Assembly (NCBI GenBank): GCA_050331235.1
Contig: JBHJHA010000045.1
Span: 1 to 22,456 of the forward strand
Direction: 5' to 3'
Source: Leptolyngbyaceae cyanobacterium
Lineage (GTDB): Bacteria; Cyanobacteriota; Cyanobacteriia; Phormidesmidales; Phormidesmidaceae
Length of the DNA: 22,456 bases
Part shown: piece by piece, positions 3,882 through 15,715 of the stretch
Layout: each line of letters starts with the position of its first letter
Numbering within the stretch: position 1 is the first letter of the stretch
Translations under genes and position numbers: made by a program
The notes under the pieces: generated by a model
The model's database searches: none
What the model saw: only the letters and a program-made list of their open reading frames with translations
What the model was told of the DNA's origin: nothing

Positions 3882-5111
3882 CTAGTGGCAATCCACTTTC
3901 GGTAACATCGTCATCCCTAAAACCCCGGCATCACACATACGACACTGCCGACGCCCGTAGTCGCCAGCCGTATGTACTCCCATTACTGCTAGCATCAGCG
4001 CCGACGGCAACTCATAGGGATCCGCTGCCGTGTAGTTGACTGCATAGCCCAAATCTTCCAGCGATCCCACCGTCAACCGACTCAACGGATTGAGGCCCAA
4101 GTTTAAAAAACCCGTCATCAGTTCATTGCCAAAGACTGTCTCCCGCCAATGGCCATCTCGGGTGCCCTGGCCCCCTGTATTTTCCACCGGCACTGGTGTC
4201 ATCCCTGATTCCCCCATCAGCGCAGCAAACTCCCGCATACCGTTGTTTCCCACATAGAGAGGATTGGCCGACCCCGCACCCACCAAGAGATTCTGCGACT
4301 GCCAGATAGTGCCAATTCCGAGCACATGCCCCATCTCAAGAATAATCACGTTGAGCAATCCTCCCTCAGCCTCTAACCGGGACAAGTCGCCGATATCAAA
4401 TTCCATCACCCCGGTAATAGGCAACAGCGAACCGCTACGCAGGCGCGTGGGACCAGCTCGACCTAGCACCCCACTTGACCCATCAATGGAAAGACCTCGA
4501 GCTTCAATCAGCACGTCATCAATGGTTTCTCCATTGACAACCCCCGAGGGCAAATCCCCAATGATAATCTCAGACCAGCGGGCGGCCGCCACCTCAAACA
4601 AGGCGCGTTGGCTCGCCGTCAGCCCACCCAAAAACCGAATCTCAATGGCAAACTGAGTCGGTGGCGGCGGCGCTACCACTTCGTTGAAGACCAATTCTAG
4701 CGACCACCGGTTCAACATGCCCCCATCAAAAAAGGCCTGATCTTGAATCTGGAGCGTCCAGGTCCCGTTGGGGTCCCCAATGAGCAATGGGGTCAGCGGT
4801 TGTTCTGGTCGAAAGGTGCCTTGAAAGGGGGCGGTGCCCTGAACGATCGCCACCCCAGCCGCATCATCAAACGTAGTCTCAAAGAAATTGTCGCCGCTGC
4901 CGCCTTCATTACCCACCAAGAGAACGGTTTCGCCGCTCGGCGCTACGAGGGAGATTCTCAGGTCGCTAGTGAAGGTGTGGACGACATTGATCGTTACTGC
5001 AATGCGTTGAAGGGGGGCCGTGACGTTGGAAACAGCGATCGCAGAGCTAACATCAGTCGGCGCAAATCGGGAAATTGGCACCGCAGTTGAATTTGTAAAA
5101 ACCTGTTTCAT
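3882..5111 (-). CDS. Proprotein-convertase P-domain + leishmanolysin-like (M8) zinc metallopeptidase, with altered HEXXH
   Basis: ORF 3882..5219; likely start ATG 5111 (MKQVFTN). P-domain motifs HTFTSDLRISLVAPSG and NGTWTLQIQD..DGGMLNRWSL. Peptidase motifs LGRAGP, LEMGHVLGIG, GHWRE and Met-turn ELMTG. Confidence 0.85.
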   Translation of the reverse strand: MKQVFTNSTAVPISRFAPTDVSSAIAVSNVTAPLQRIAVTINVVHTFTSDLRISLVAPSGETVLLVGNEGGSGDNFFETTFDDAAGVAIVQGTAPFQGTFRPEQPLTPLLIGDPNGTWTLQIQDQAFFDGGMLNRWSLELVFNEVVAPPPPTQFAIEIRFLGGLTASQRALFEVAAARWSEIIIGDLPSGVVNGETIDDVLIEARGLSIDGSSGVLGRAGPTRLRSGSLLPITGVMEFDIGDLSRLEAEGGLLNVIILEMGHVLGIGTIWQSQNLLVGAGSANPLYVGNNGMREFAALMGESGMTPVPVENTGGQGTRDGHWRETVFGNELMTGFLNLGLNPLSRLTVGSLEDLGYAVNYTAADPYELPSALMLAVMGVHTAGDYGRRQCRMCDAGVLGMTMLPKVDCH

Positions 5112-5346
5112 GGCGGCTAGATGCACTGAAAAAACAATATCTCGGGCTAAAGCAGAAAAATTATCCGATACAAGGCAAGGGAGTAATTGAAATCGAGCAA
5201 GCTGTCGCAGTCGATACATCCACGCTCTGCGCCCATTTAAGCCTTGAACCTAGAGACGGGTCCACAGGACTTTATGAAAACGTAACTTTAGGTGGATTAG
5301 GGCCATGCGCCCTACGCCCCTTACAGCTACCTCAGACAGACAGGAC

Positions 5347-6016
5347 TTATGCAAGAACCATAGTGATCGCGGGTCGCTTCAGCTGTTGCATCAGATAGTT
5401 GGCTAGCAAGCCATGCTTGATTTGATCAATCGTTTGACCTCTCTGGTAAGCGATGGCCTTCAACCGGGTCCACACGAGCAACGCACAAGCAATGTGATTG
5501 CGCTGAATCCTGGCTTTGCGGCACTGACAAGCCTCCACCCCAGTCAACTGCTTGAGTTCACGGTGTAACGCCTCAATCTTCCAACGGACGCCAGACTCCT
5601 CTTGTGCAGCCTCTGTGGCGTTTTGAGTTAAGTCGTTGGTAGCGACAAATTCCGTCCGGCAGGAAGACACCGTGACCCGGAACAGTTTCACCTTCTTGTC
5701 TTTCGGAAAACCCCGAATTTTAATGCGTTTGCCCGGGGCGAGCGCCTCACTATCCCACCTCAGTTCATCGATTCGCTGGTAAGGCTGGGTGCCGCCACTG
5801 TCGTCAACCCGGCGGTTGCGCTTCAGCGGACAGTAGTAGAGTTTGCCCAACTGGTCAATCTGTGCCATCAGCTTTTGACTGGCAGACCAACTGTCCATCA
5901 GCACAGTGCGAGAGGGCAGCCCCTTGACATGCACGACGGCCTCTAGCATCGCCGCCATATGGTCGAGTTTGCTCTGACCATCCCCATCTGGGTCATAGAG
6001 ACGATAGTCAATCACC
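5347..6016 (-). pseudogene. IS701-family DDE transposase, N-terminally truncated
   Basis: Motifs VIDYRLYDPDGDG, VLMDSW and RWKIEALHRELKQLTGVEACQCRKARIQRNHI. The predicted TTG start (MRKS) is just the neighbouring IR at 6017-6030, and the N-terminal region with the first catalytic Asp is missing. Confidence 0.85.
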
Positions 6017-6073
6017 CAGGACTTACGCAAGAACCATAGTGACCGCGGGTCACTTCAGTTGTGCCATCAAGTA

Positions 6074-6133
6074 CAGGACTTACGCAAGGCAAACTCATGC
6101 CAGAAGGATCAAGCTTGCCTTGCGTAAGTCCTG
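6074..6133. repeat. 60-bp miniature inverted-repeat element (MITE-like)
   Basis: Perfect 19-bp IR CAGGACTTACGCAAGGCAA (6074-6092) / TTGCCTTGCGTAAGTCCTG (6115-6133) around a 22-bp spacer. Confidence 0.8.
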
Positions 6134-6157
6134 TCAGCTTTAGATCAAAATAGTCCG

Positions 6158-6679
6158 TCAAATTTGCTGGCAGCGCTCTAGGCGCAGCATCATCGCATCA
6201 AACATGCCCGGGTCGCCAAAGCCGGCCCCTCGTCCTTTGCCAAATCCGCCCACTAACCAAGATCGATGCCACGACATCTCCCAAAACCATAGCGCTGGTA
6301 AATGTCCAGGCGGAGCCTCAAGGGAGAAGGTTAGCCAGCCGTAAAAGTTGAAAAAGCTCGCCAAGGGCCATGTGGTCATGGTCCAGCCCGTTTGCCGGCC
6401 AAATTCGTAGGTTGAGCGGCGAGCGATCTCTCGATAGATTTGTAGTTGGGTACTAAACCCAAACCGGCCACTGCTGTAAAGTAGCCAGCGCTGATCGATC
6501 TGGTGCAGTATCTCGCAGGGCAGTTGCGCGATCGCCTCTTGATTGAGCCAACCTTCATTGGTGCGGTTACAAGCTGCCAGCAATATTTCCAAAGTGACAG
6601 CATCAGCCTCTTGCCATTCATCCTGACACAGTAGGTCTTCTAGCTCTTGCAGCCCCGTGGTGATCTCGGCTTCTATCAT
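6158..6679 (-). CDS. Stand-alone GUN4-domain protein
   Basis: Motifs LEDLLCQDEWQEADAVT, LPCEILHQIDQRWLLYSSGRFGFSTQLQIY and FSLEAPPGHLP. ATG 6679 overlaps the upstream TGA (ATGA), so the longer 6760 start is unlikely. Confidence 0.88.
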   Translation of the reverse strand: MIEAEITTGLQELEDLLCQDEWQEADAVTLEILLAACNRTNEGWLNQEAIAQLPCEILHQIDQRWLLYSSGRFGFSTQLQIYREIARRSTYEFGRQTGWTMTTWPLASFFNFYGWLTFSLEAPPGHLPALWFWEMSWHRSWLVGGFGKGRGAGFGDPGMFDAMMLRLERCQQI

Positions 6680-8178
6680 GGCTCTGGCTGACCTGCTTCG
6701 GTGGCATTCTCGGCAGATGGTGTCGGTGGTTTGGGCGGTTGCTTGAGATGGGAGAAGCATCGCTCCACTAACTGCGCAAACACGCCGTTGACTAGTTCCT
6801 CATTGATGGCATATTCGCCCTCAAGGCTATTAGCTTCCCAGCGCCAAGTGGGCAGGTGACCCAGGGGTGCTTGTAGATTAAACTGCAGGTCCCGATAGGC
6901 TTTGCGCCGAGTTAGCAGATTGACACCGCCAAGGCCAACACCAGATGCCCACTCAACAGCGGCGAGAAATTCATTCGCCTGGCGATCGTGTTGCACATAT
7001 ACCTGGTGCTGAGCTGTGAAGCCAAATTTGCCCTGGCTGTAGCTTGACCACAGCTGGTCTAACGTTTGTAGATCAACACAGTGCAGCCGCAAGATGGCGC
7101 TATCGGTAAGGGGGCGCATGTCTTGACTGAGGGCGGAGAGCAGTAGTCTTTCGGTTTCTTGGTCAGCGGCCTCCCACTGATGGAGCCAGAGCAGATGCCG
7201 CAGCCGCGTGTAGTCGAGATGGAGGGCGGAGTCAATGGGGCCATAGCGTTCGTCGACGGTTTCTCGCTCGATCGCGCGTATAAGTTCTCGATCCAGTTCC
7301 CAGATCCGCCGGGCCTGCTCCAGCCGACCGCGGTCAAACTCGTTGGGATAAGGGCTATGGGCGATCGCGCTGGCAAACTCTTGGCGATACTGTTCCGCAT
7401 GGTTTTGCTGAGCGACCACATGTTGTTGAGGTGTTTTGTCTTTGGGCTCGGGCGGTGGTTCGGGATCGGGATTCTCAGGGGGCTGGCGCTTCGTGATTTC
7501 AGCTTCGTGGATGGGGGCCACATCAGCGGCAGAGAGATGGAGTGACTCACGCAGTCGCTGTAGTTCTATTTCAGTCGTGTCGTCTAGAGGGGGAGCATGG
7601 CGATCAAGCTCGGCGTCGAGGACTTCTCGATATTTATCTAGCTTGGCCTGGCGATCACGATAGGGGCCGAGGGCCCGGTTAATCATCTGCTCGGCCGCTT
7701 CTGGGTCTAAGTTCAACCGGTAGCACAGCAAGTCCAAATTGGCGCGCTCCACCGGCGATATCTCTCCCTCGCGCATGGCGTAGGTGGCGGCGCGGGCTTG
7801 AAATACCTGCCGGGCGGGTAAAATCGTGTCAACGACGGGGCATAATCCTAGCAACTCCTCTCCAGTAGCGGTTTGGATTTGCACTCGCAGTCGGCCTATC
7901 TCACAGGTGAGGCGGATGCTGGTGCCTTGGGTGGTAAGGCGATCACTAATATCCTGCAGCCAAATTTCTAAATATTCTGGTCGCGGCATCCTGACTTCTA
8001 AGCCGTAGAGGGTGTTTCCCTGGCTGCGGTCGCGAAGCGGGGTGATTTGGTCTGTCGGCGTTAGGTCAAGCTGACTGAGATCATCCCAAAAAGTCTGCAC
8101 TGTGCGATCGCGGTCGGCCACACTCAGTGTTTTATCAACGACTTGTAAAATCACTCGACTCGATTTGGCAATCTCCAC
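6676..8178 (-). CDS. Multidomain protein: EACC1-like N-terminus, three helical repeats, C-terminal GUN4 domain
   Basis: ORF 6676..8277; probable start GTG 8178 downstream of AGAGGAG. GUN4 motifs LDYTRLRHLL..WEAADQET, DLQTLDQLWSSYSQGKFGF and APLGHLP. The GUN4 call is secure; the N-terminal call is tentative. Confidence 0.8.
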   Translation of the reverse strand: MEIAKSSRVILQVVDKTLSVADRDRTVQTFWDDLSQLDLTPTDQITPLRDRSQGNTLYGLEVRMPRPEYLEIWLQDISDRLTTQGTSIRLTCEIGRLRVQIQTATGEELLGLCPVVDTILPARQVFQARAATYAMREGEISPVERANLDLLCYRLNLDPEAAEQMINRALGPYRDRQAKLDKYREVLDAELDRHAPPLDDTTEIELQRLRESLHLSAADVAPIHEAEITKRQPPENPDPEPPPEPKDKTPQQHVVAQQNHAEQYRQEFASAIAHSPYPNEFDRGRLEQARRIWELDRELIRAIERETVDERYGPIDSALHLDYTRLRHLLWLHQWEAADQETERLLLSALSQDMRPLTDSAILRLHCVDLQTLDQLWSSYSQGKFGFTAQHQVYVQHDRQANEFLAAVEWASGVGLGGVNLLTRRKAYRDLQFNLQAPLGHLPTWRWEANSLEGEYAINEELVNGVFAQLVERCFSHLKQPPKPPTPSAENATEAGQPEP

Positions 8179-8709
8179 CCCAGACAATACTCCTCTAAAG
8201 CATTGAAACTCTGGATTATCTGTAAGTTTTCGACTAAGGATACCTCCTGACATCGACTTTAGACAGATATTTGACAATTGCGGGTTATTTGCCGCGACCG
8301 CAGGGAATGATGGTTGGTCTGAGGCCTATACGGTGGTACCGCTATGCGCTAGGTACTGAAAACTCGGTGATAGTTGCTAGCCTTGTCCGGGCGCAAAGTT
8401 GCACATATGGAAAACATTCATAAATGCTGGCCAAGTCGTCAAAACTCTTGCACTACACTGGTGTGAGTTTGCTCAGAGACCTACTCAAATGGGCGAGCGA
8501 TTTACCTACTCCGGTTTATCCGTAGGTTCACGGTGATCGCCCAGGTGGGAACGCTATAGATGAAACAAATGTCAAACGCTAAAGCTTAATATCCCAGGCT
8601 TATTCTTGGCTTGGTGAAATCTTGGGTCTCGTTATAAATCGGTTGACCCAGGGTAATCTTGAACGTTGAAAGCTCCAATCTTAATCACACACTTATTTAT
8701 CCCAAGGGT

Positions 8710-11682
8710 ATGACAGCCACTTCTCAGTCGCTGCAGCGCACACTCTCTCAACTTGCCCCGTTTGACCAACTGCCAGGGACGGCGATCGCCAGCCTCACCC
8801 AAGGGGGGCAACTGCTGCGATATCGGATCGGACAGCCAATTGTGCGACCAGAAGCGCTGCCTCAGCTCGTACTCATTACTGAGGGGCAAGCTCGCTTGTT
8901 GGGAGAAGATCCCCGCACGGACAAACCTGTGACGCTGCAGTTATTGAGCCAAGGGGCGCTGCTGGGAGTGGTCGGGATGCTGCGCGGACAGCCCTGCGAA
9001 ACGGTTATCGCTTCTTCTGAAGTCATCGGCCTCCAGTTCTCCATGGCCGCATTTCAACAAACGATGGAGAGTCATCCGGAGTTTGCTAGAGCCATTCGCG
9101 ATCGCCTCTATCTGGCTGAAGTGTTTGATCTACTCGCGCGCCAAATTGATGATCAGGCTCAAGACGTGGGTGATTTGGTGCAGCTCACCAAGCGATCGCA
9201 CGAAACCGGCGTGGTCCAGTATTTGCCCTATGGCAAACGTCCCCTCAATCTACAAAAGGGCGACCTGACCTGGTTTGTCAGCAGCGGCACCATCATCAAC
9301 CAGCCCATGGGCAGTCAGCTCAACCTAGATTGGGCCGGTAATGAACTGGATGTTATTAGTCCCCAAGGGGCACGGCTGGTGGGGCTACCAGATTTGCCCA
9401 TGCTGGCCCCTGCTACCCCAGCACCGCAAAATGGCCATGCAGCGACCCCGACTGAGACCGACGACCGTGGGGCGATTCCCTATGCTCCAGAGCACCTTCC
9501 GGAGCCCGAGCCCGAGCCGGCAAGCATCAGCACCGACTATCCGTTCGTGCGGGGTAAGGGTGAAGTGGAAGGCATGCTGGCCTGTATGGAAATGGTTAGC
9601 CAGCATTTTGGTATGCCGTTTCGGCGAGATATCATTCGGCGGATTTTGACCAACCAGCGCGCTCGGCTAGGGCAACTCTCGTTGCCATTGGCAGGCAAAG
9701 TTGCCGAGTTTATGGGCCTCCGTACGCAAATGACGAAGGTGCCGGTCAATGCCATCAGCCGCCTGCCGACTCCGGCCCTGATTAGCTGGCAAGAGGGCTA
9801 TGCCATTCTCTACGAGACCAATGCTAAGGCGCGGATCTTAGCTGTCCCCGAGGTGGGGATCATTCAGCGATCGCCGATTGAATTTGAGGAAACCTGGGGC
9901 GACGAAGGCGAAGTCTTACTGCTGGAAAAAACCCGAGAGACGCCACAGGAGCGCTTTGGCCTCAGCTGGTTTATCCCCTCGCTAAAAAAGTATCGCTGGG
10001 TGCTGGTCGAGGTTCTGATTGCCTCCTTCTTCGTGCAGCTTTTTGGGTTGGCCAATCCCTTGATGGTGCAGGTCATCATCGACAAGGTGATTGTGCAAAA
10101 CAGCACTGATACGCTGCAGGTTTTGGGCGTTTTTCTGCTGATTATCGCTATCTTTGAGGCGGTGCTCACCGCCCTGCGGACCTACCTGTTTGTCGATACC
10201 ACGAACCGGATCGACATGGCACTGGGGACCGAAATCATCGATCACTTATTGAGACTACCGCTGCGTTATTTCGATAAGCGCCCCGTCGGCGAGCTCTCCA
10301 GCCGGGTAAATGAACTGGAGAATATCCGCAAGTTTCTTACCGGTACTGCCCTCACCGTGGTGTTAGACGCCGTCTTCTCGGTACTCTACATCGTGGTGAT
10401 GTTCATCTACAGTTGGCTGTTGACGCTGGTTGCCCTCGCGACGATTCCGCTGTTTGTCTTTTTGACCGTGCTAGTCGCTCCCATTGTGCGACGGCAGCTA
10501 CGACTCAAAGCCGAGCGCAATGCCTCGACTCAGTCTTATTTGGTGGAGGCACTGTCGGGCATTCAAACCGTCAAGGCCCAAAACATCGAGCTACGCACCC
10601 GCTGGCAGTGGCAAGAACGCTATGCCAGTTATGTCAGTGCCGGCTTTAACACCGTGCTTACGTCAACCACGGCGGGTGCAGCTAGCAACTTTTTGAATAA
10701 GCTGTCGGCGCTTTTGGTGTTGTGGGTAGGCGCTTACCTCGTTTTGCAGGGCGAACTGAGTCTGGGTCAGCTGATTGCTTTCCGGATTATTTCGGGCTAT
10801 GTGACTGCGCCGATTTTGCGTCTAGCTCAGCTTTGGCAAAACTTCCAAGAGACTGCCCTGTCATTGGAGCGTTTGAGCGATATTTTGGATCATCCCTGTG
10901 AGGCTGAGGAGCAGGGACGTAACCAGATTCAGATGCCCGATATTCAGGGCACGGTGCGATACGAAAACGTTGCTTTTCGATTTGCGCCATCGGGACCGTT
11001 GCAATTGGTCAACATCAATCTCGAGTTTCCCGCTGGCGAGTTTGTGGGTATTGTGGGGCAAAGCGGTTCTGGCAAAAGCACCCTGATGAAGCTGCTACCA
11101 CGGCTCTATGAAATTGAGTCCGGGCGCATCTTGATTGACAAATACGACATCGGTAAAGTGGAGCTCTATTCGCTGCGGCAGCAGGTCGGAATTGTCCCCC
11201 AAGACAGTCTGCTGTTTGAAGGTACCATTCAGGACAATATCTCCTTAACGCGGCCAGAGGCCGATACGGAAGCCATTATTTGGGCCGCTAAAATTGCTTG
11301 TGCCCATGAGTTTATTATGGATTTGCCGCTGGGATATAACACCCGAGTTGGTGAGCGCGGTTCCTCTCTATCGGGAGGGCAGCGACAGCGGATCGCGATC
11401 GCCCGCACGATTTTGCATAATCCTCGTCTGTTGATTCTAGATGAGGCCACTAGTGCCCTGGACTATGACACCGAAAAGCAGGTGTGCAACAACCTCAAAG
11501 AATGGTCAACGGGACGTACGGTATTTTTTATTACTCACCGTCTCAGCACAATTCAAGATTCCGACACTATTCTGGTAATGGATCGCGGGGCCGCGGTCGA
11601 ACAAGGAACCCATGGCGAACTCATGGATCTCCGAGGCCGCTATTACACCCTTTATCAGCAACAGATTCATACCCCTGAGTAA
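8710..11682 (+). CDS. hlyB: Type I secretion permease/ATPase, HlyB family (cNMP-binding domain, C39-like domain, ABC TM, ABC ATPase)
   Basis: ORF 8659..11682; likely ATG 8710. Walker A GQSGSGKST, signature LSGGQRQR, Walker B LILDEATSALD, H-loop ITHRL. TM region QVIIDKV...HLLRLPLRYF. cNMP-like N-terminus. Confidence 0.92.
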   Translation: MTATSQSLQRTLSQLAPFDQLPGTAIASLTQGGQLLRYRIGQPIVRPEALPQLVLITEGQARLLGEDPRTDKPVTLQLLSQGALLGVVGMLRGQPCETVIASSEVIGLQFSMAAFQQTMESHPEFARAIRDRLYLAEVFDLLARQIDDQAQDVGDLVQLTKRSHETGVVQYLPYGKRPLNLQKGDLTWFVSSGTIINQPMGSQLNLDWAGNELDVISPQGARLVGLPDLPMLAPATPAPQNGHAATPTETDDRGAIPYAPEHLPEPEPEPASISTDYPFVRGKGEVEGMLACMEMVSQHFGMPFRRDIIRRILTNQRARLGQLSLPLAGKVAEFMGLRTQMTKVPVNAISRLPTPALISWQEGYAILYETNAKARILAVPEVGIIQRSPIEFEETWGDEGEVLLLEKTRETPQERFGLSWFIPSLKKYRWVLVEVLIASFFVQLFGLANPLMVQVIIDKVIVQNSTDTLQVLGVFLLIIAIFEAVLTALRTYLFVDTTNRIDMALGTEIIDHLLRLPLRYFDKRPVGELSSRVNELENIRKFLTGTALTVVLDAVFSVLYIVVMFIYSWLLTLVALATIPLFVFLTVLVAPIVRRQLRLKAERNASTQSYLVEALSGIQTVKAQNIELRTRWQWQERYASYVSAGFNTVLTSTTAGAASNFLNKLSALLVLWVGAYLVLQGELSLGQLIAFRIISGYVTAPILRLAQLWQNFQETALSLERLSDILDHPCEAEEQGRNQIQMPDIQGTVRYENVAFRFAPSGPLQLVNINLEFPAGEFVGIVGQSGSGKSTLMKLLPRLYEIESGRILIDKYDIGKVELYSLRQQVGIVPQDSLLFEGTIQDNISLTRPEADTEAIIWAAKIACAHEFIMDLPLGYNTRVGERGSSLSGGQRQRIAIARTILHNPRLLILDEATSALDYDTEKQVCNNLKEWSTGRTVFFITHRLSTIQDSDTILVMDRGAAVEQGTHGELMDLRGRYYTLYQQQIHTPE

Positions 11683-11759
11683 AATCGGTTCGCTGACTCA
11701 ATTGTTTCAGTCCGTGATGTTTTCCCTATTAGGGCTTCGATTTACTGCGAGGACGACCT

Positions 11760-13325
11760 ATGCCCCCCGGATCGCGCATTTCTCATAATGGTCAACTGCA
11801 AAACGGCCATACTCCCAACGGGCGATCGCAAAATGGCCACTTGCCCCCGCCTCCATCCCCAAAATCTCCGGCCTCGCCAAGTCCAGGGTTTGAGCGCCCG
11901 GTCATTCTCCGTCAGTCGCCCCGGTGGGCCCGTTATGTTGTCTGGGGCATTGTGGGCGTCACCGTAGGCACAGTGACTTGGGCCTGCCTTGCCAAAATCG
12001 AAGATGCGATTCCGGCCCAGGGCAAGCTAGAGCCTCAGGGAGTAGTGCAGCCGGTACAGGCACCGGTGGGCGGTGTTGTTGATGAGATCTTGGTAAATGA
12101 AGGCGAGCAGGTCGAGCAGGGGGATGTCCTCGTCAAGCTTGATCCCAAGGCGACCCAAGCTCAGCTTAAGTCGCTGGAGGATGTCCAGGAAAGCCTAATT
12201 GAAGAAAACCAATATTATCGCTCCCAATTGAGTCCGTCCCCTGACCCCGAGGGAGCGCCCCTGGGCGTTTCCCCTGAGGTGACGCGGCTCACGAGCAACC
12301 GAGTTGCACTGATCGAAGAAAACGAACTCTATCGAGCGATTCTCCGAGGCGATATTGATGCGACGGGCCTTTCTCCTCGGCAGCGAGAGCGGGTCGAGAC
12401 CTCTCTGGGAGACATCAGCTCGCAAATCGCCATCAATCAACTCGAAATCGAGCAGCTCAGCAAACAGCTTGATCAGGTGAATACACAACTTGCCAATGCG
12501 GTCCAAGCTTTGAGCGTAGAGCAAGAAATTTACGGTCGCATTGAGCCTCTACTGGAACAAGGGGGCATCTCGGAGCTACAGGGACTGCGACAACAACAGG
12601 AAGTCAATAACCGCCAAACAGAGGTCTCGAGCCTGCGAGAAGAGCAGCAGCGCCTCAGGCTAGCCATTGATCAAGCGCGGGAAGAACTGCGTCGCACTTC
12701 AGTGGTGTCCAGTGAAGAACTGCTAGAGCGCATTGCGGCCAACGACAACCAAATAGCCAATATTGATAGCCAGTTAACCAAAGTTGTTGTTGATAACGAA
12801 AAACAACTCGAAGAAATTGAAGGCCAAATCAGCCAACTGCGCTTTGCCCTCGAAAATCAAGAACTGCGGGCCCCTCTTGATGGTCAAGTGTTTAACCTGC
12901 AAGCCAATCAGCCTGGCTACGTGGCCAATGCTACGGAGCCAATTTTAGAAATCGTTCCCAACGATACCCTAGTGGCTCGGGTCTTTATCACCAACAGCGA
13001 CATTGGCTTTGTAACCCAACAGTTTGACCAAGACGATGAACTCAAGGTAGACGTCCGCATCGACTCTTTCCCCTTTAGCGAGTTTGGTGATGTTGAAGGC
13101 ACCGTTGTTCACATTGGGTCTGATGCACTGCCCCCAGACGAAGTCAATCCTTTCTATCGATTTCCCGCAGAAATTGAACTAGAAGCCCAGCAGCTAGGCG
13201 AAGCGTTGCCGCTACAGTCTGGAATGTCGGTTACGGCGAATATCAAGCTACGGAAGCGTAGGGTGATTACGATTTTGAGAGATTTATTTGTACGCAAAAT
13301 AGATAGCCTCCGTTCAGGTGGCTAA
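11760..13325 (+). CDS. hlyD: HlyD-family membrane fusion (periplasmic adaptor) protein
   Basis: Single TM, AQGKLEP, VQAPVGGVV..V.EGEQVEQGDVL lipoyl half-motif, long coiled coil, LRAPLDGQV, FPFSEFG and LQSGMSVTANI. Directly downstream of hlyB. Confidence 0.92.
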   Translation: MPPGSRISHNGQLQNGHTPNGRSQNGHLPPPPSPKSPASPSPGFERPVILRQSPRWARYVVWGIVGVTVGTVTWACLAKIEDAIPAQGKLEPQGVVQPVQAPVGGVVDEILVNEGEQVEQGDVLVKLDPKATQAQLKSLEDVQESLIEENQYYRSQLSPSPDPEGAPLGVSPEVTRLTSNRVALIEENELYRAILRGDIDATGLSPRQRERVETSLGDISSQIAINQLEIEQLSKQLDQVNTQLANAVQALSVEQEIYGRIEPLLEQGGISELQGLRQQQEVNNRQTEVSSLREEQQRLRLAIDQAREELRRTSVVSSEELLERIAANDNQIANIDSQLTKVVVDNEKQLEEIEGQISQLRFALENQELRAPLDGQVFNLQANQPGYVANATEPILEIVPNDTLVARVFITNSDIGFVTQQFDQDDELKVDVRIDSFPFSEFGDVEGTVVHIGSDALPPDEVNPFYRFPAEIELEAQQLGEALPLQSGMSVTANIKLRKRRVITILRDLFVRKIDSLRSGG

Positions 13326-14329: not shown

Positions 14330-15715
14330 TTAGGTATCCTCAGACTCACTCTCAGGTGGTGTGGCTGATAAGTCTGGGTCTTGCGACGATACCATTCTGG
14401 AAAAGATTCGGCAGGCTTCGATTTCTTCTGTGGTCCACTGGCGCTGAAAGCCACTGCTATCAACGGGATCACGTTTGGGTGCAATCAGGTTGTACTCAAT
14501 ATTTTCGGTGTGAATCGCAAAAGTGACTTGGAAAACCTCTAAAAAATTGATCACCCAGTTGCACTGTTCTCGGGGAAATTGCTCATAGTACTGAATGAGA
14601 TCGGCAATTCGGGCTTCTAAATAATGATGTGAGCTTTTGGCAATGAGGACAACCTTCAGTAAAAGGATTGCCAGTAAAAGCGAGCTACTCTGTGACAGCA
14701 GTAGGGTAAATAACGGTGATGGCGATCGCTGGTCCTCTGTCATTAATGAGTCGATGACCCGGTTACAGGTGCGGAGCTGCAAGGAAGGATCAATGGGGTC
14801 GTTGTCATGTTCGACATACAAGTGACTCAATTTTTGTCCCAAATGTTGTCGCAGCGTTTTGACAACTTCGGGTTGCTGCATCGAGTAGGTTAGATATTCA
14901 ATTAGACTTTTTTTGTAGCTGCCATAGTTGAGATCTTTGACCTGCTCTAAAAATAGGTTGGCTAAGCTTTTGTAGCCGTACTGTCCTTTACGAGCCACGA
15001 TCGCCTTAATTAATCGCAAAACGCCATCGCCAAGGACGGTCGGATTTTTAAGATCTTTTCGCCCCTTCACCGAATAGTCTTGAGAGTGGGCTGTGTACAT
15101 TGCCAAATCCATCTTGTATTGGTCTTTGAGCTTACGCGACAGAGATCGGGCAGCTTCTCGCTGCTCCACTGGATTGTCGGTATTGATGTACTGCTGAATT
15201 AGTAAGTAGGAAGTGTAACGGGAAGACCACTGGGACTCCGTTTCGGTAAACCTTGAAGCAAACAGTTGAAGCTCTTGGAAATCGCTGCTTTCGATAAAGT
15301 TGCGAATCCAGTTGCGCAAGCGCTTGAGGGTCGGTGAAACCGTATATCTCGTCAGGGTAGAACTGTCGAATAGTTCAACTAGCGCTTGAATAGAGGCATA
15401 TTGACGAGCAACTTCCCAGTTGTTGATCAGAATATAACAGGAGCGCTTCAGGGTATTGTGGAACTCTTTTTCGTCATTGCTAAACAGAAGCACATAAATG
15501 GCAGAAGAGACATCAGTACTAGCAGTTTCTCCATATTCAAAAAAGAGTTGTTCAAATTGGAGCAGAACCTCTGCCGGGTCCCATTGCTTAACGATGCTCA
15601 ATAGAAAACTGAAAATATTTTCCTGAGCTTCGCTAAGGGTCATTGTCGACCTTGAAAAGCGCTCAGAGTTAGTATCTTGGCGATGTTCCGACACGAAATT
15701 TGCAACCCTTGCCAT
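14330..15715 (-). CDS. Hypothetical protein (cyanobacterial-type, predicted all-helical)
   Basis: 461-aa ATG-started ORF. It resembles an uncharacterised cyanobacterial family (LKRSCYILINNW; RYTSYLL; EQREAAR). No catalytic motif recognised. Confidence 0.8.
   Translation of the reverse strand: MARVANFVSEHRQDTNSERFSRSTMTLSEAQENIFSFLLSIVKQWDPAEVLLQFEQLFFEYGETASTDVSSAIYVLLFSNDEKEFHNTLKRSCYILINNWEVARQYASIQALVELFDSSTLTRYTVSPTLKRLRNWIRNFIESSDFQELQLFASRFTETESQWSSRYTSYLLIQQYINTDNPVEQREAARSLSRKLKDQYKMDLAMYTAHSQDYSVKGRKDLKNPTVLGDGVLRLIKAIVARKGQYGYKSLANLFLEQVKDLNYGSYKKSLIEYLTYSMQQPEVVKTLRQHLGQKLSHLYVEHDNDPIDPSLQLRTCNRVIDSLMTEDQRSPSPLFTLLLSQSSSLLLAILLLKVVLIAKSSHHYLEARIADLIQYYEQFPREQCNWVINFLEVFQVTFAIHTENIEYNLIAPKRDPVDSSGFQRQWTTEEIEACRIFSRMVSSQDPDLSATPPESESEDT

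Follow-up and report, generated by a model that had tools for sequence, protein, structure and literature searches.

A caspase-less gene with EACC1-derived and GUN4 domains and its small GUN4 partner in a Leptolyngbyaceae cyanobacterium

What might a gene pair do that carries the apparent remains of a bacterial cell-death system, but no protease? The question is raised by two adjacent genes in a 22,456-nucleotide stretch of a Leptolyngbyaceae cyanobacterium (GenBank assembly GCA_050331235.1, contig JBHJHA010000045.1, positions 1 to 22,456; hereafter "the window"). The larger gene joins an EACC1-derived domain to helical repeats and a GUN4 domain, whilst the smaller encodes a GUN4 domain alone. 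An earlier note on this DNA had taken the pair for a protease-less EACC1 variant that acts in trans and senses tetrapyrroles; the EACC1 ancestry and the lack of a linked caspase stood up to our analysis, but the tetrapyrrole and the protease acting in trans did not. We favor, with nearly even confidence, a reading in which the fused, caspase-less EACC1 gene and the small GUN4 gene specify a closed, non-lethal two-protein sensor or scaffold. The parts of the module are as follows.

6676..8178, minus strand: large gene, GTG start, 500 amino acids (P0003); EACC1-derived domain, three helical repeats and a GUN4 paralogue domain
7819..8166, minus strand: EACC1-derived domain, residues 5-120; predicted beta-alpha-beta-beta-alpha-beta-beta-alpha, ferredoxin-like
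8002..8028, minus strand: site of the EACC1 glycine-rich hydrophobic segment, residues 51-59; shortened and polar in the large protein
7483..7818, minus strand: helical repeats 1 and 2, residues 121-232; homologous to the post-caspase repeats of EACC1-linked caspases
7417..7482, minus strand: linker rich in proline, modeled with low confidence, residues 233-254; charged and helix-like in most relatives
7240..7416, minus strand: helical repeat 3, residues 255-313; assigned by profile comparison with repeat 2
6745..7233, minus strand: GUN4 paralogue domain A, residues 316-478; PF05419 match and structural match to 1y6i
6811..6861, minus strand: pocket loop of domain A, GHLP-[TS]WRW...L...Y; fixed, and replaces LxNxLR
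6676..6679, minus strand: ATGA overlap of the large gene's stop with the small gene's start
6158..6679, minus strand: small gene, ATG start, 173 amino acids; stand-alone GUN4 paralogue B
6185..6295, minus strand: 37-residue Trp/Gly-rich pocket loop of paralogue B; fixed, and the most constrained part of the module

EACC1 ancestry, shared repeats and the absent caspase

Both window proteins match the GUN4 family PF05419 far above its cut-off (E 7.9e-27 for the large and 7.3e-29 for the small protein), and the open reading frames (ORFs) confirmed that the two GUN4 genes are joined by ATGA at 6676-6679, as had been noted before. The two GUN4 domains are about 34-36% identical to each other. An alternative TTG start upstream, at 8277, would lengthen the large protein to 533 amino acids. 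An AlphaFold model of that protein (62 sequences) predicts helical repeats between an alpha/beta domain at the N-terminus and a GUN4 core, with a mean predicted local distance difference test score of 90.1 and a predicted template modeling score of 0.53, the orientations of the domains being uncertain. The exact four-base overlap is not the conserved feature, given that among 71 relatives the small gene overlaps the large one (-17 to -1) in 35, follows it after 0-20 nucleotides in 24 and after a wider gap in 12, and an in-frame start at -4 is available in only 11. Scans for promoters and terminators stayed at chance level.

Neither the N-terminus nor the repeats of the large protein have a direct match in Pfam or NCBIfam. 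We therefore relied on a profile of 49 N-termini from the family, which, when searched against 1.84 billion representative proteins, returned 58 at E<=0.001. Eighteen of these fell below 1e-10, and the full-length ones among them resemble family members; of the remaining 40, 27 were scanned in Pfam and proved to be 24 stand-alone proteins of 119-162 amino acids (from E 2.5e-7), one CHAT fusion and two divergent family members, the unscanned ones being five very long partial matches, three fragments and another five that are either family members or fragments. PF19953, the EACC1 family, was matched in 8 of the 25 non-family proteins scanned, 2 of them over the curated cut-off. The profile of fused N-termini aligns with that of the stand-alone proteins at a probability of 98.6% (E 8e-16, 114 columns), and a reverse search with the stand-alone profile recovers the fused genes. 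A structure search of the Atlas placed EACC1 clusters at TM scores of 0.76 and 0.71 by row, compared with 0.62 for a generic ferredoxin-like row, although the EACC1 rows lie under that search's bar for naming. Against solved structures, a fold search of the N-terminal domain gave generic ferredoxin-like rows only (best Z 8.6, tied), and a genome search with PF19953 was silent everywhere, including the controls, and is thus uninformative. Judged from these profiles, the N-terminus is homologous to cyanobacterial EACC1, as its residue pattern had first suggested; the residues quoted for that pattern do occur in the protein.

In the top 30 loci for stand-alone EACC1-like genes, all from the same cyanobacterial family, a caspase gene lies directly downstream in 23. 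Five others (L091, L095, L096, L105 and L108) have the downstream space, and no caspase in it; a further protein, P0115, is an EACC1 with an intact hydrophobic segment fused in frame to a CHAT domain. The EACC1-to-caspase order is what defines the EACC1–caspase system; in the published description, EACC1 either stands alone or is joined to EAD1 or EAD2, and GUN4 is among the cyanobacterial fusion partners (PMC7159879). A recent preprint shows EACC1 to be an autoinhibited monomer that is cut by its linked caspase, whereupon the toxic C-terminal half permeabilizes liposomes (10.1101/2025.11.14.688446). EACC1 is accordingly a protease-activated pore former, rather than the adaptor that the earlier note had assumed.

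The segment on which such a pore would depend is altered in the fused family. The loop ahead of a conserved glycine is 4.6 residues shorter than in stand-alone EACC1-like proteins, the alignment of the two profiles has a 5-column gap there, and the mean hydropathy of the 16 residues around it is -0.38 (standard deviation 0.44, n=49), as opposed to +0.95 (standard deviation 0.40, n=24) in the stand-alone proteins, a comparison of related sequences for which p-values would be overstated. The hydrophobic segment, whose absence had been suspected from the window alone, is thus gone from the family. A Lys motif that precedes it is found in 1 of 49 fused and 17 of 24 stand-alone proteins. By analogy with a Ktedonobacter protein that is cut near Asp49, the cut site and membrane segment of cyanobacterial EACC1 would map to this region.

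Support for a caspase partner in the ancestry of the large gene comes from the repeats. Comparisons of the repeat-unit profiles in three pairs gave probabilities of 52%, 19% and 78%, the last being repeat 2 against repeat 3 (E 1.8e-5). In 21 ORFs (E to 4e-23), a profile of repeats 1 and 2 matches the caspases encoded downstream of stand-alone EACC1, directly behind the protease domain, and such post-caspase repeats occurred in all 14 stand-alone EACC1 loci that were extended. The last helix of the EACC1-derived domain in the large protein passes directly into repeat 1. Furthermore, loci L116 (from the same family) and L133 (from another) contain operons in which EACC1 is followed by a caspase–repeats–GUN4 gene. 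In a tree of 52 repeat sequences, a 100/99 branch separates the 20 caspase rows from the fused rows, with a GUN4-less paralogue nested among the latter. Because the repeats would derive from the caspase partner, the architecture of the large gene is explained, and the simplest and likely reading is that EACC1 and its caspase–repeats–GUN4 partner were fused and the caspase domain removed. The direction, from a two-gene system to a single fusion, is what we infer from an unrooted tree. The helical repeat, which lacks a Pfam match and is common to caspase, TIR and fused proteins, may be an adaptor.

No caspase is linked to the pair, in agreement with the earlier observation: none of the 10 window ORFs scanned belongs to a caspase or, as had also been remarked, a chlorophyll-synthesis family, and caspase-dyad patterns were absent from the ORFs of all 75 loci collected. 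The module resembles the EACC1–caspase system (PF19953 plus PF00656) in its homologous 5' domain, which is assigned transitively, in its repeats and, by comparison with L116 and L133, in having GUN4 at the C-terminus, where that system has its variable domain. It differs in being one polypeptide without a caspase, in its shortened polar segment, in its second GUN4 gene, and in being single-copy and fixed in whole genera rather than patchy. There is no adjacent 3' gene with an N-terminal caspase or cNMP cyclase, no conserved hydrophobic segment with its small-residue patch, and no variable C-terminal domain on a partner, the C-terminal domain being constant (PF05419 in all 63 large-type proteins collected, 62 of them full-length relatives, in a search limited to 275-875 amino acids). 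Since the module lacks these three defining features, we did not file it as a member.

Bacterial TRADD-N (PMC8195603) is likewise a ferredoxin-like domain, known from modular proteins of cyanobacteria whose last domain can be GUN4, but it is sandwiched between other domains, whereas the domain in the large protein is N-terminal. Foldseek gave a weak row for the full model against TRADD-N 1f2h (E 0.13) and generic ferredoxin-like rows for the domain alone; we set this identity aside. The sequence profile leads to EACC1-type proteins and not to TRADD-N. Fusions of TRADD-N and of caspases with GUN4 have been described (PMC8195603, PMC5756287). In the literature that we searched, neither an EACC1–repeats–GUN4 fusion lacking a caspase nor the gene pair is described, although the supplements to PMC7159879 and 10.1101/2025.11.14.688446 could list the architecture. 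What appears to be new is that the repeats are post-caspase repeats and that unfused EACC1→caspase–repeats–GUN4 operons exist; it is these two observations that make the large gene look like a fusion of the two partners minus the caspase.

Distribution and constraint of the pair

The two-gene linkage, for which a survey had been proposed, recurs widely. The small gene lies directly downstream of the large one in 72 of 75 loci, the other three ending at or just past the large gene; among the 75, L028 and L063 have interrupted or partial genes, and L002 and L056 are cut by contig ends. Of 140 genomes of the family, 71 yielded the large gene (E<=1e-60, weakest match 1e-123), and exactly these 71 also yielded the small one (E<=1e-45). 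Both are single copy in all carriers, adjacent in 69 and on different contigs in two. Presence is nearly all-or-none by genus (46/46, 11/11, 4/4 and 1/2, versus 0/40 and 0/18), and the carriers include Nodosilinea, Halomicronema, Almyronema, Sphaerothrix and Leptolyngbya PCC 6406. A draw of 401 genomes from across the phylum, with three candidates scored in each, yielded no full-length large gene outside the family.

All parts of both genes are under purifying selection. The pooled ratio of nonsynonymous to synonymous substitution rates, calculated from 16 disjoint pairs, spans 0.07-0.21 over all parts; it is 0.20 for the EACC1 part, 0.15 and 0.19 for the repeats, 0.14 and 0.13 for the GUN4 cores and 0.067 for the loop of the small gene. 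The recurrent neighbors are lineage-dependent and of a housekeeping kind, namely tgt, a sigma factor, a ferritin-like protein, a cation exporter, a C39-peptidase ABC transporter with HlyD, and an RNA polymerase subunit.

By comparison, canonical EACC1-type caspases are patchy in the carrier genera (15/46 and 6/11). Among carriers, a query for them (E<=1e-30) found one in 29 of 71 genomes, and among non-carriers in 47 of 69, for a total of 76 of 140 in the family. The window's own genome, which is 95.5% complete, has no EACC1-type caspase by this query, no stand-alone EACC1, and no other ORF that matches a widened repeat profile at E<0.1; it does have two other matches to PF00656 and eight to CHAT. 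The proposal that the module acts in trans with a cognate protease therefore fared poorly, since none was found in 42 of the 71 carriers, the window genome included.

These counts also bear on the idea that the module is a decoy or brake, i.e., an uncleavable EACC1 mimic whose repeats bind incoming caspase–repeat and TIR systems and so limit self-killing. Protease-dead caspase homologues in animals limit self-killing. The large protein keeps the substrate fold and the partner's repeats and has lost the protease and the toxic segment, and canonical systems come and go within the family. However, these systems are found in a smaller share of carriers than of non-carriers; moreover, the strongest constraint falls on the GUN4 loops and not on the EACC1 part. 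We regard a decoy as quite unlikely.

The two GUN4 pockets

Neither gene is the canonical gun4, a possibility that the earlier note had itself named as a refutation and that we set aside: the true orthologue, with the full LxNxLR motif, lies elsewhere in the window's genome (G000:C43). The GUN4 core of the modeled large protein superimposes on Synechocystis GUN4 (Sll0558, the ChlH activator; PDB 1y6i) with Z 19.6 and a root-mean-square deviation of 1.9 over 147 aligned residues, so that the predicted core fold is shared, but identity to canonical GUN4 in structural alignments is only 22-27% and the pair lacks LxNxLR, which includes Asn211 and Arg214. None of the proteins that could be parsed, 68 large and 69 small, has the motif (parsing failed for 7 large and 3 small ones). 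At the Arg214 position of domain A, the register gives Glu, Ser or Asp if a four-residue insertion is allowed, and Cys or Ala otherwise.

The motif is replaced by loops of fixed form. G440-P443, W445, R446 and W447 in domain A are invariant in 62 proteins that were collected with residues 1-320 only; the 75 loci had been collected partly with the loop motif itself, which makes loop counts from those loci circular. The small gene was never used as bait in the collection, and its loop has 37 residues in 67 of 67 parsed proteins. Aromatic residues are conserved in the GUN4 pocket. Multidomain GUN4 paralogues (caspase-, kinase-, TIR- and NACHT-GUN4; PMC7159879, PMC5756287, PMC10156173) likewise end in a GUN4 core without LxNxLR, but they have an enzyme domain, which the module lacks, and their loops are not fixed in length and sequence as these are: among 30 GUN4 paralogue tails from 15 genomes plus L116 and L133, 27 were mutually unlike by eye and varied in length, and the other three form another fixed family (a further eight ORFs did not parse). 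Fixed pocket loops also mark two further families of GUN4 paralogues, at L171, L172 and L184 and at L150, L174 and L175, one of which has a Cys-x-x-Cys pattern.

The Asn of LxNxLR is required for bilin binding and is absent in paralogues (PMC10156173), and changing Arg214 to Ala or Glu abolishes porphyrin binding (PMC1084334), the equivalent change in a plant protein causing a 3- to 12-fold loss (PMC8967248). Based on the missing motif and the changed Arg214, bilin sensing by either domain is unlikely, and porphyrin binding is doubtful, though conceivable. The tetrapyrrole-sensing EACC1 variant of the earlier note, cut by a caspase encoded elsewhere, could appeal to the intact GUN4 fold and the EACC1 homology, to the 29 carriers with an EACC1-type caspase and to the PF00656 and CHAT matches of the window genome. 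Given the motif's absence throughout, the substituted Arg214 in domain A, the near loss of the Lys motif ahead of the segment and the many carriers in which no cognate caspase was found, we consider it very unlikely. Much the same holds, and with as little probability, for a lineage-specific carrier of porphyrin or another small molecule in pigment metabolism, with EACC1 and the repeats as a mere stalk. The distribution of a core gene and the conserved pocket aromatics would suit such a carrier, and a GUN4 mutant that had lost the motif Asn still bound porphyrin (PMC10156173), but a canonical full-motif gun4 is already present in the genome, Arg214 is missing, and no pigment gene was seen among the recurrent neighbors scanned.

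In a GUN4 tree, the two families separate cleanly (99/98 and 99/97), and they are joined against other paralogues at only 84/82, so that a tandem duplication is not shown. Outside the family, the paralogue-B type of loop ends three larger proteins. Two of these (L194:2557-5223 and L195:1988-5713), from two other cyanobacterial families and in housekeeping surroundings, are caspase–several repeats–GUN4 proteins in which the catalytic His is changed to Tyr or Arg, and the third, in L187, is a repeats–GUN4 protein without a caspase match; the fetched regions of all three gave no EACC1 match. Few as they are, these three cases suggest that the small gene, too, may be what is left of a caspase–repeats–GUN4 protein, and that a dead or absent protease may go with this type of loop. 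The loop of the small gene might be a relic of G/T-rich diversification: G/T richness at codon positions 1-2 is 0.67 versus 0.49, but third positions barely differ (0.55 versus 0.51). A pseudogene fragment in the window's genome (L136, at G000:C115:16193-16474) copies the 3' half of the small gene over 282 bp at 96% identity and has an in-frame stop. In the Gly-rich loop, this fragment has Thr and the intact window copy has Lys, the residue being Thr or Ser in 69 of 69 relatives.

Possible function and surroundings

In the reading that we favor, a two-gene EACC1–caspase system would have been turned into a single fusion that can no longer make a pore, because there is no protease, the segment after the cut is polar and the C-terminal piece is tethered to 380 residues. 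The EACC1 fold and the repeats would be reused as contact surfaces, and the large and small proteins would be produced together and bind each other. Their two fixed GUN4 pockets might then read one constant cellular ligand or protein, which would not be a bilin and probably not protoporphyrin, and the signal may be relayed through the repeats to a partner encoded elsewhere than next door. Somewhat more tentatively, we propose that a protease-triggered, pore-forming death module was domesticated as a core pair within a single clade of cyanobacteria: with the caspase excised, the EACC1 membrane segment neutralized and a hypervariable GUN4 loop frozen twice, a former immune receptor would read a constant self signal in physiology or filament development.

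If true, one could trace here how a conserved, non-lethal gene arose from a bacterial cell-death system, whose parent arrangement and protease-dead intermediates persist in relatives. The large protein would also offer a natural closed-state EACC1, and with it a handle on which segment forms the pore, and the two fixed-pocket paralogues would be the easiest members in which to find ligands of non-canonical GUN4 domains.

Several observations weigh against this view. PF19953 matched none of the 49 N-termini, and EACC1 membership is thus transitive only. The repeat and GUN4 trees are unrooted, so that neither the direction of change nor a single fusion event is proven. The invariant R446 lies near the Arg214 position of domain A and could substitute for it, and loss of the motif Asn, as stated above, did not prevent porphyrin binding. 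Presence in nearly every member of a genus is usual for housekeeping genes, but is compatible with defense as well. The PADLOC model PD-T4-6 matches both proteins, in their GUN4 part only. Lastly, a GUN4-less third gene (an EACC1-like domain plus repeats, no Pfam match; e.g., L058:3808-4941) lies upstream in 27 of the 75 loci, 14 of them from Nodosilinea, and in 9 of these 27 a divergent TIR gene lies beyond it, with the same repeats in 8. These TIR–repeat genes hint at a continuing immune link in one sublineage, as shared repeats fit recruitment of an effector through a common domain, and they keep a defense role alive. A TIR_2 domain with the same helical repeats is encoded at L036:2680-3603, and L073 has two copies.

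The module could, in that case, still be anti-phage, its fixed GUN4 pockets detecting a conserved phage product and its repeats recruiting, without proteolysis, an effector of which the TIR–repeat protein would be an example. All of its domains stem from predicted immune proteins (PMC7159879), and the third paralogue, the TIR genes and the PADLOC match would all find a place. Nevertheless, the pair contains no enzyme or membrane segment, the window genome offers no second repeat protein as effector, the all-or-none occurrence by genus contrasts with the patchy caspases, and there are no defense genes among the recurrent neighbors, the PADLOC match being confined to the GUN4 domain. We think an anti-phage role unlikely, and prefer the non-lethal sensor or scaffold.

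As for the remainder of the window, a cNMP–C39–ABC transporter and HlyD pair (8659-13325, plus strand) is divergent from the module; the ABC transporter gene is found at the same place in the loci of 12 relatives and is not the neighbor in others. Further away are a 461-amino-acid, helical-looking ORF (14330-15715, minus strand) with no Pfam or NCBIfam match above cut-off, and a gene (3882-5219, minus strand) that encodes a Proprotein-convertase P domain and a leishmanolysin-like M8 peptidase domain in which the HE motif reads LE. Directly downstream of the small gene is the remnant of an IS701-family transposase (5339-6135; 227 amino acids, NF049921 below cut-off) with 17-nucleotide inverted ends, accompanied by a small inverted-repeat element at 6073-6134 and, at 6008-6069, a repeated end.

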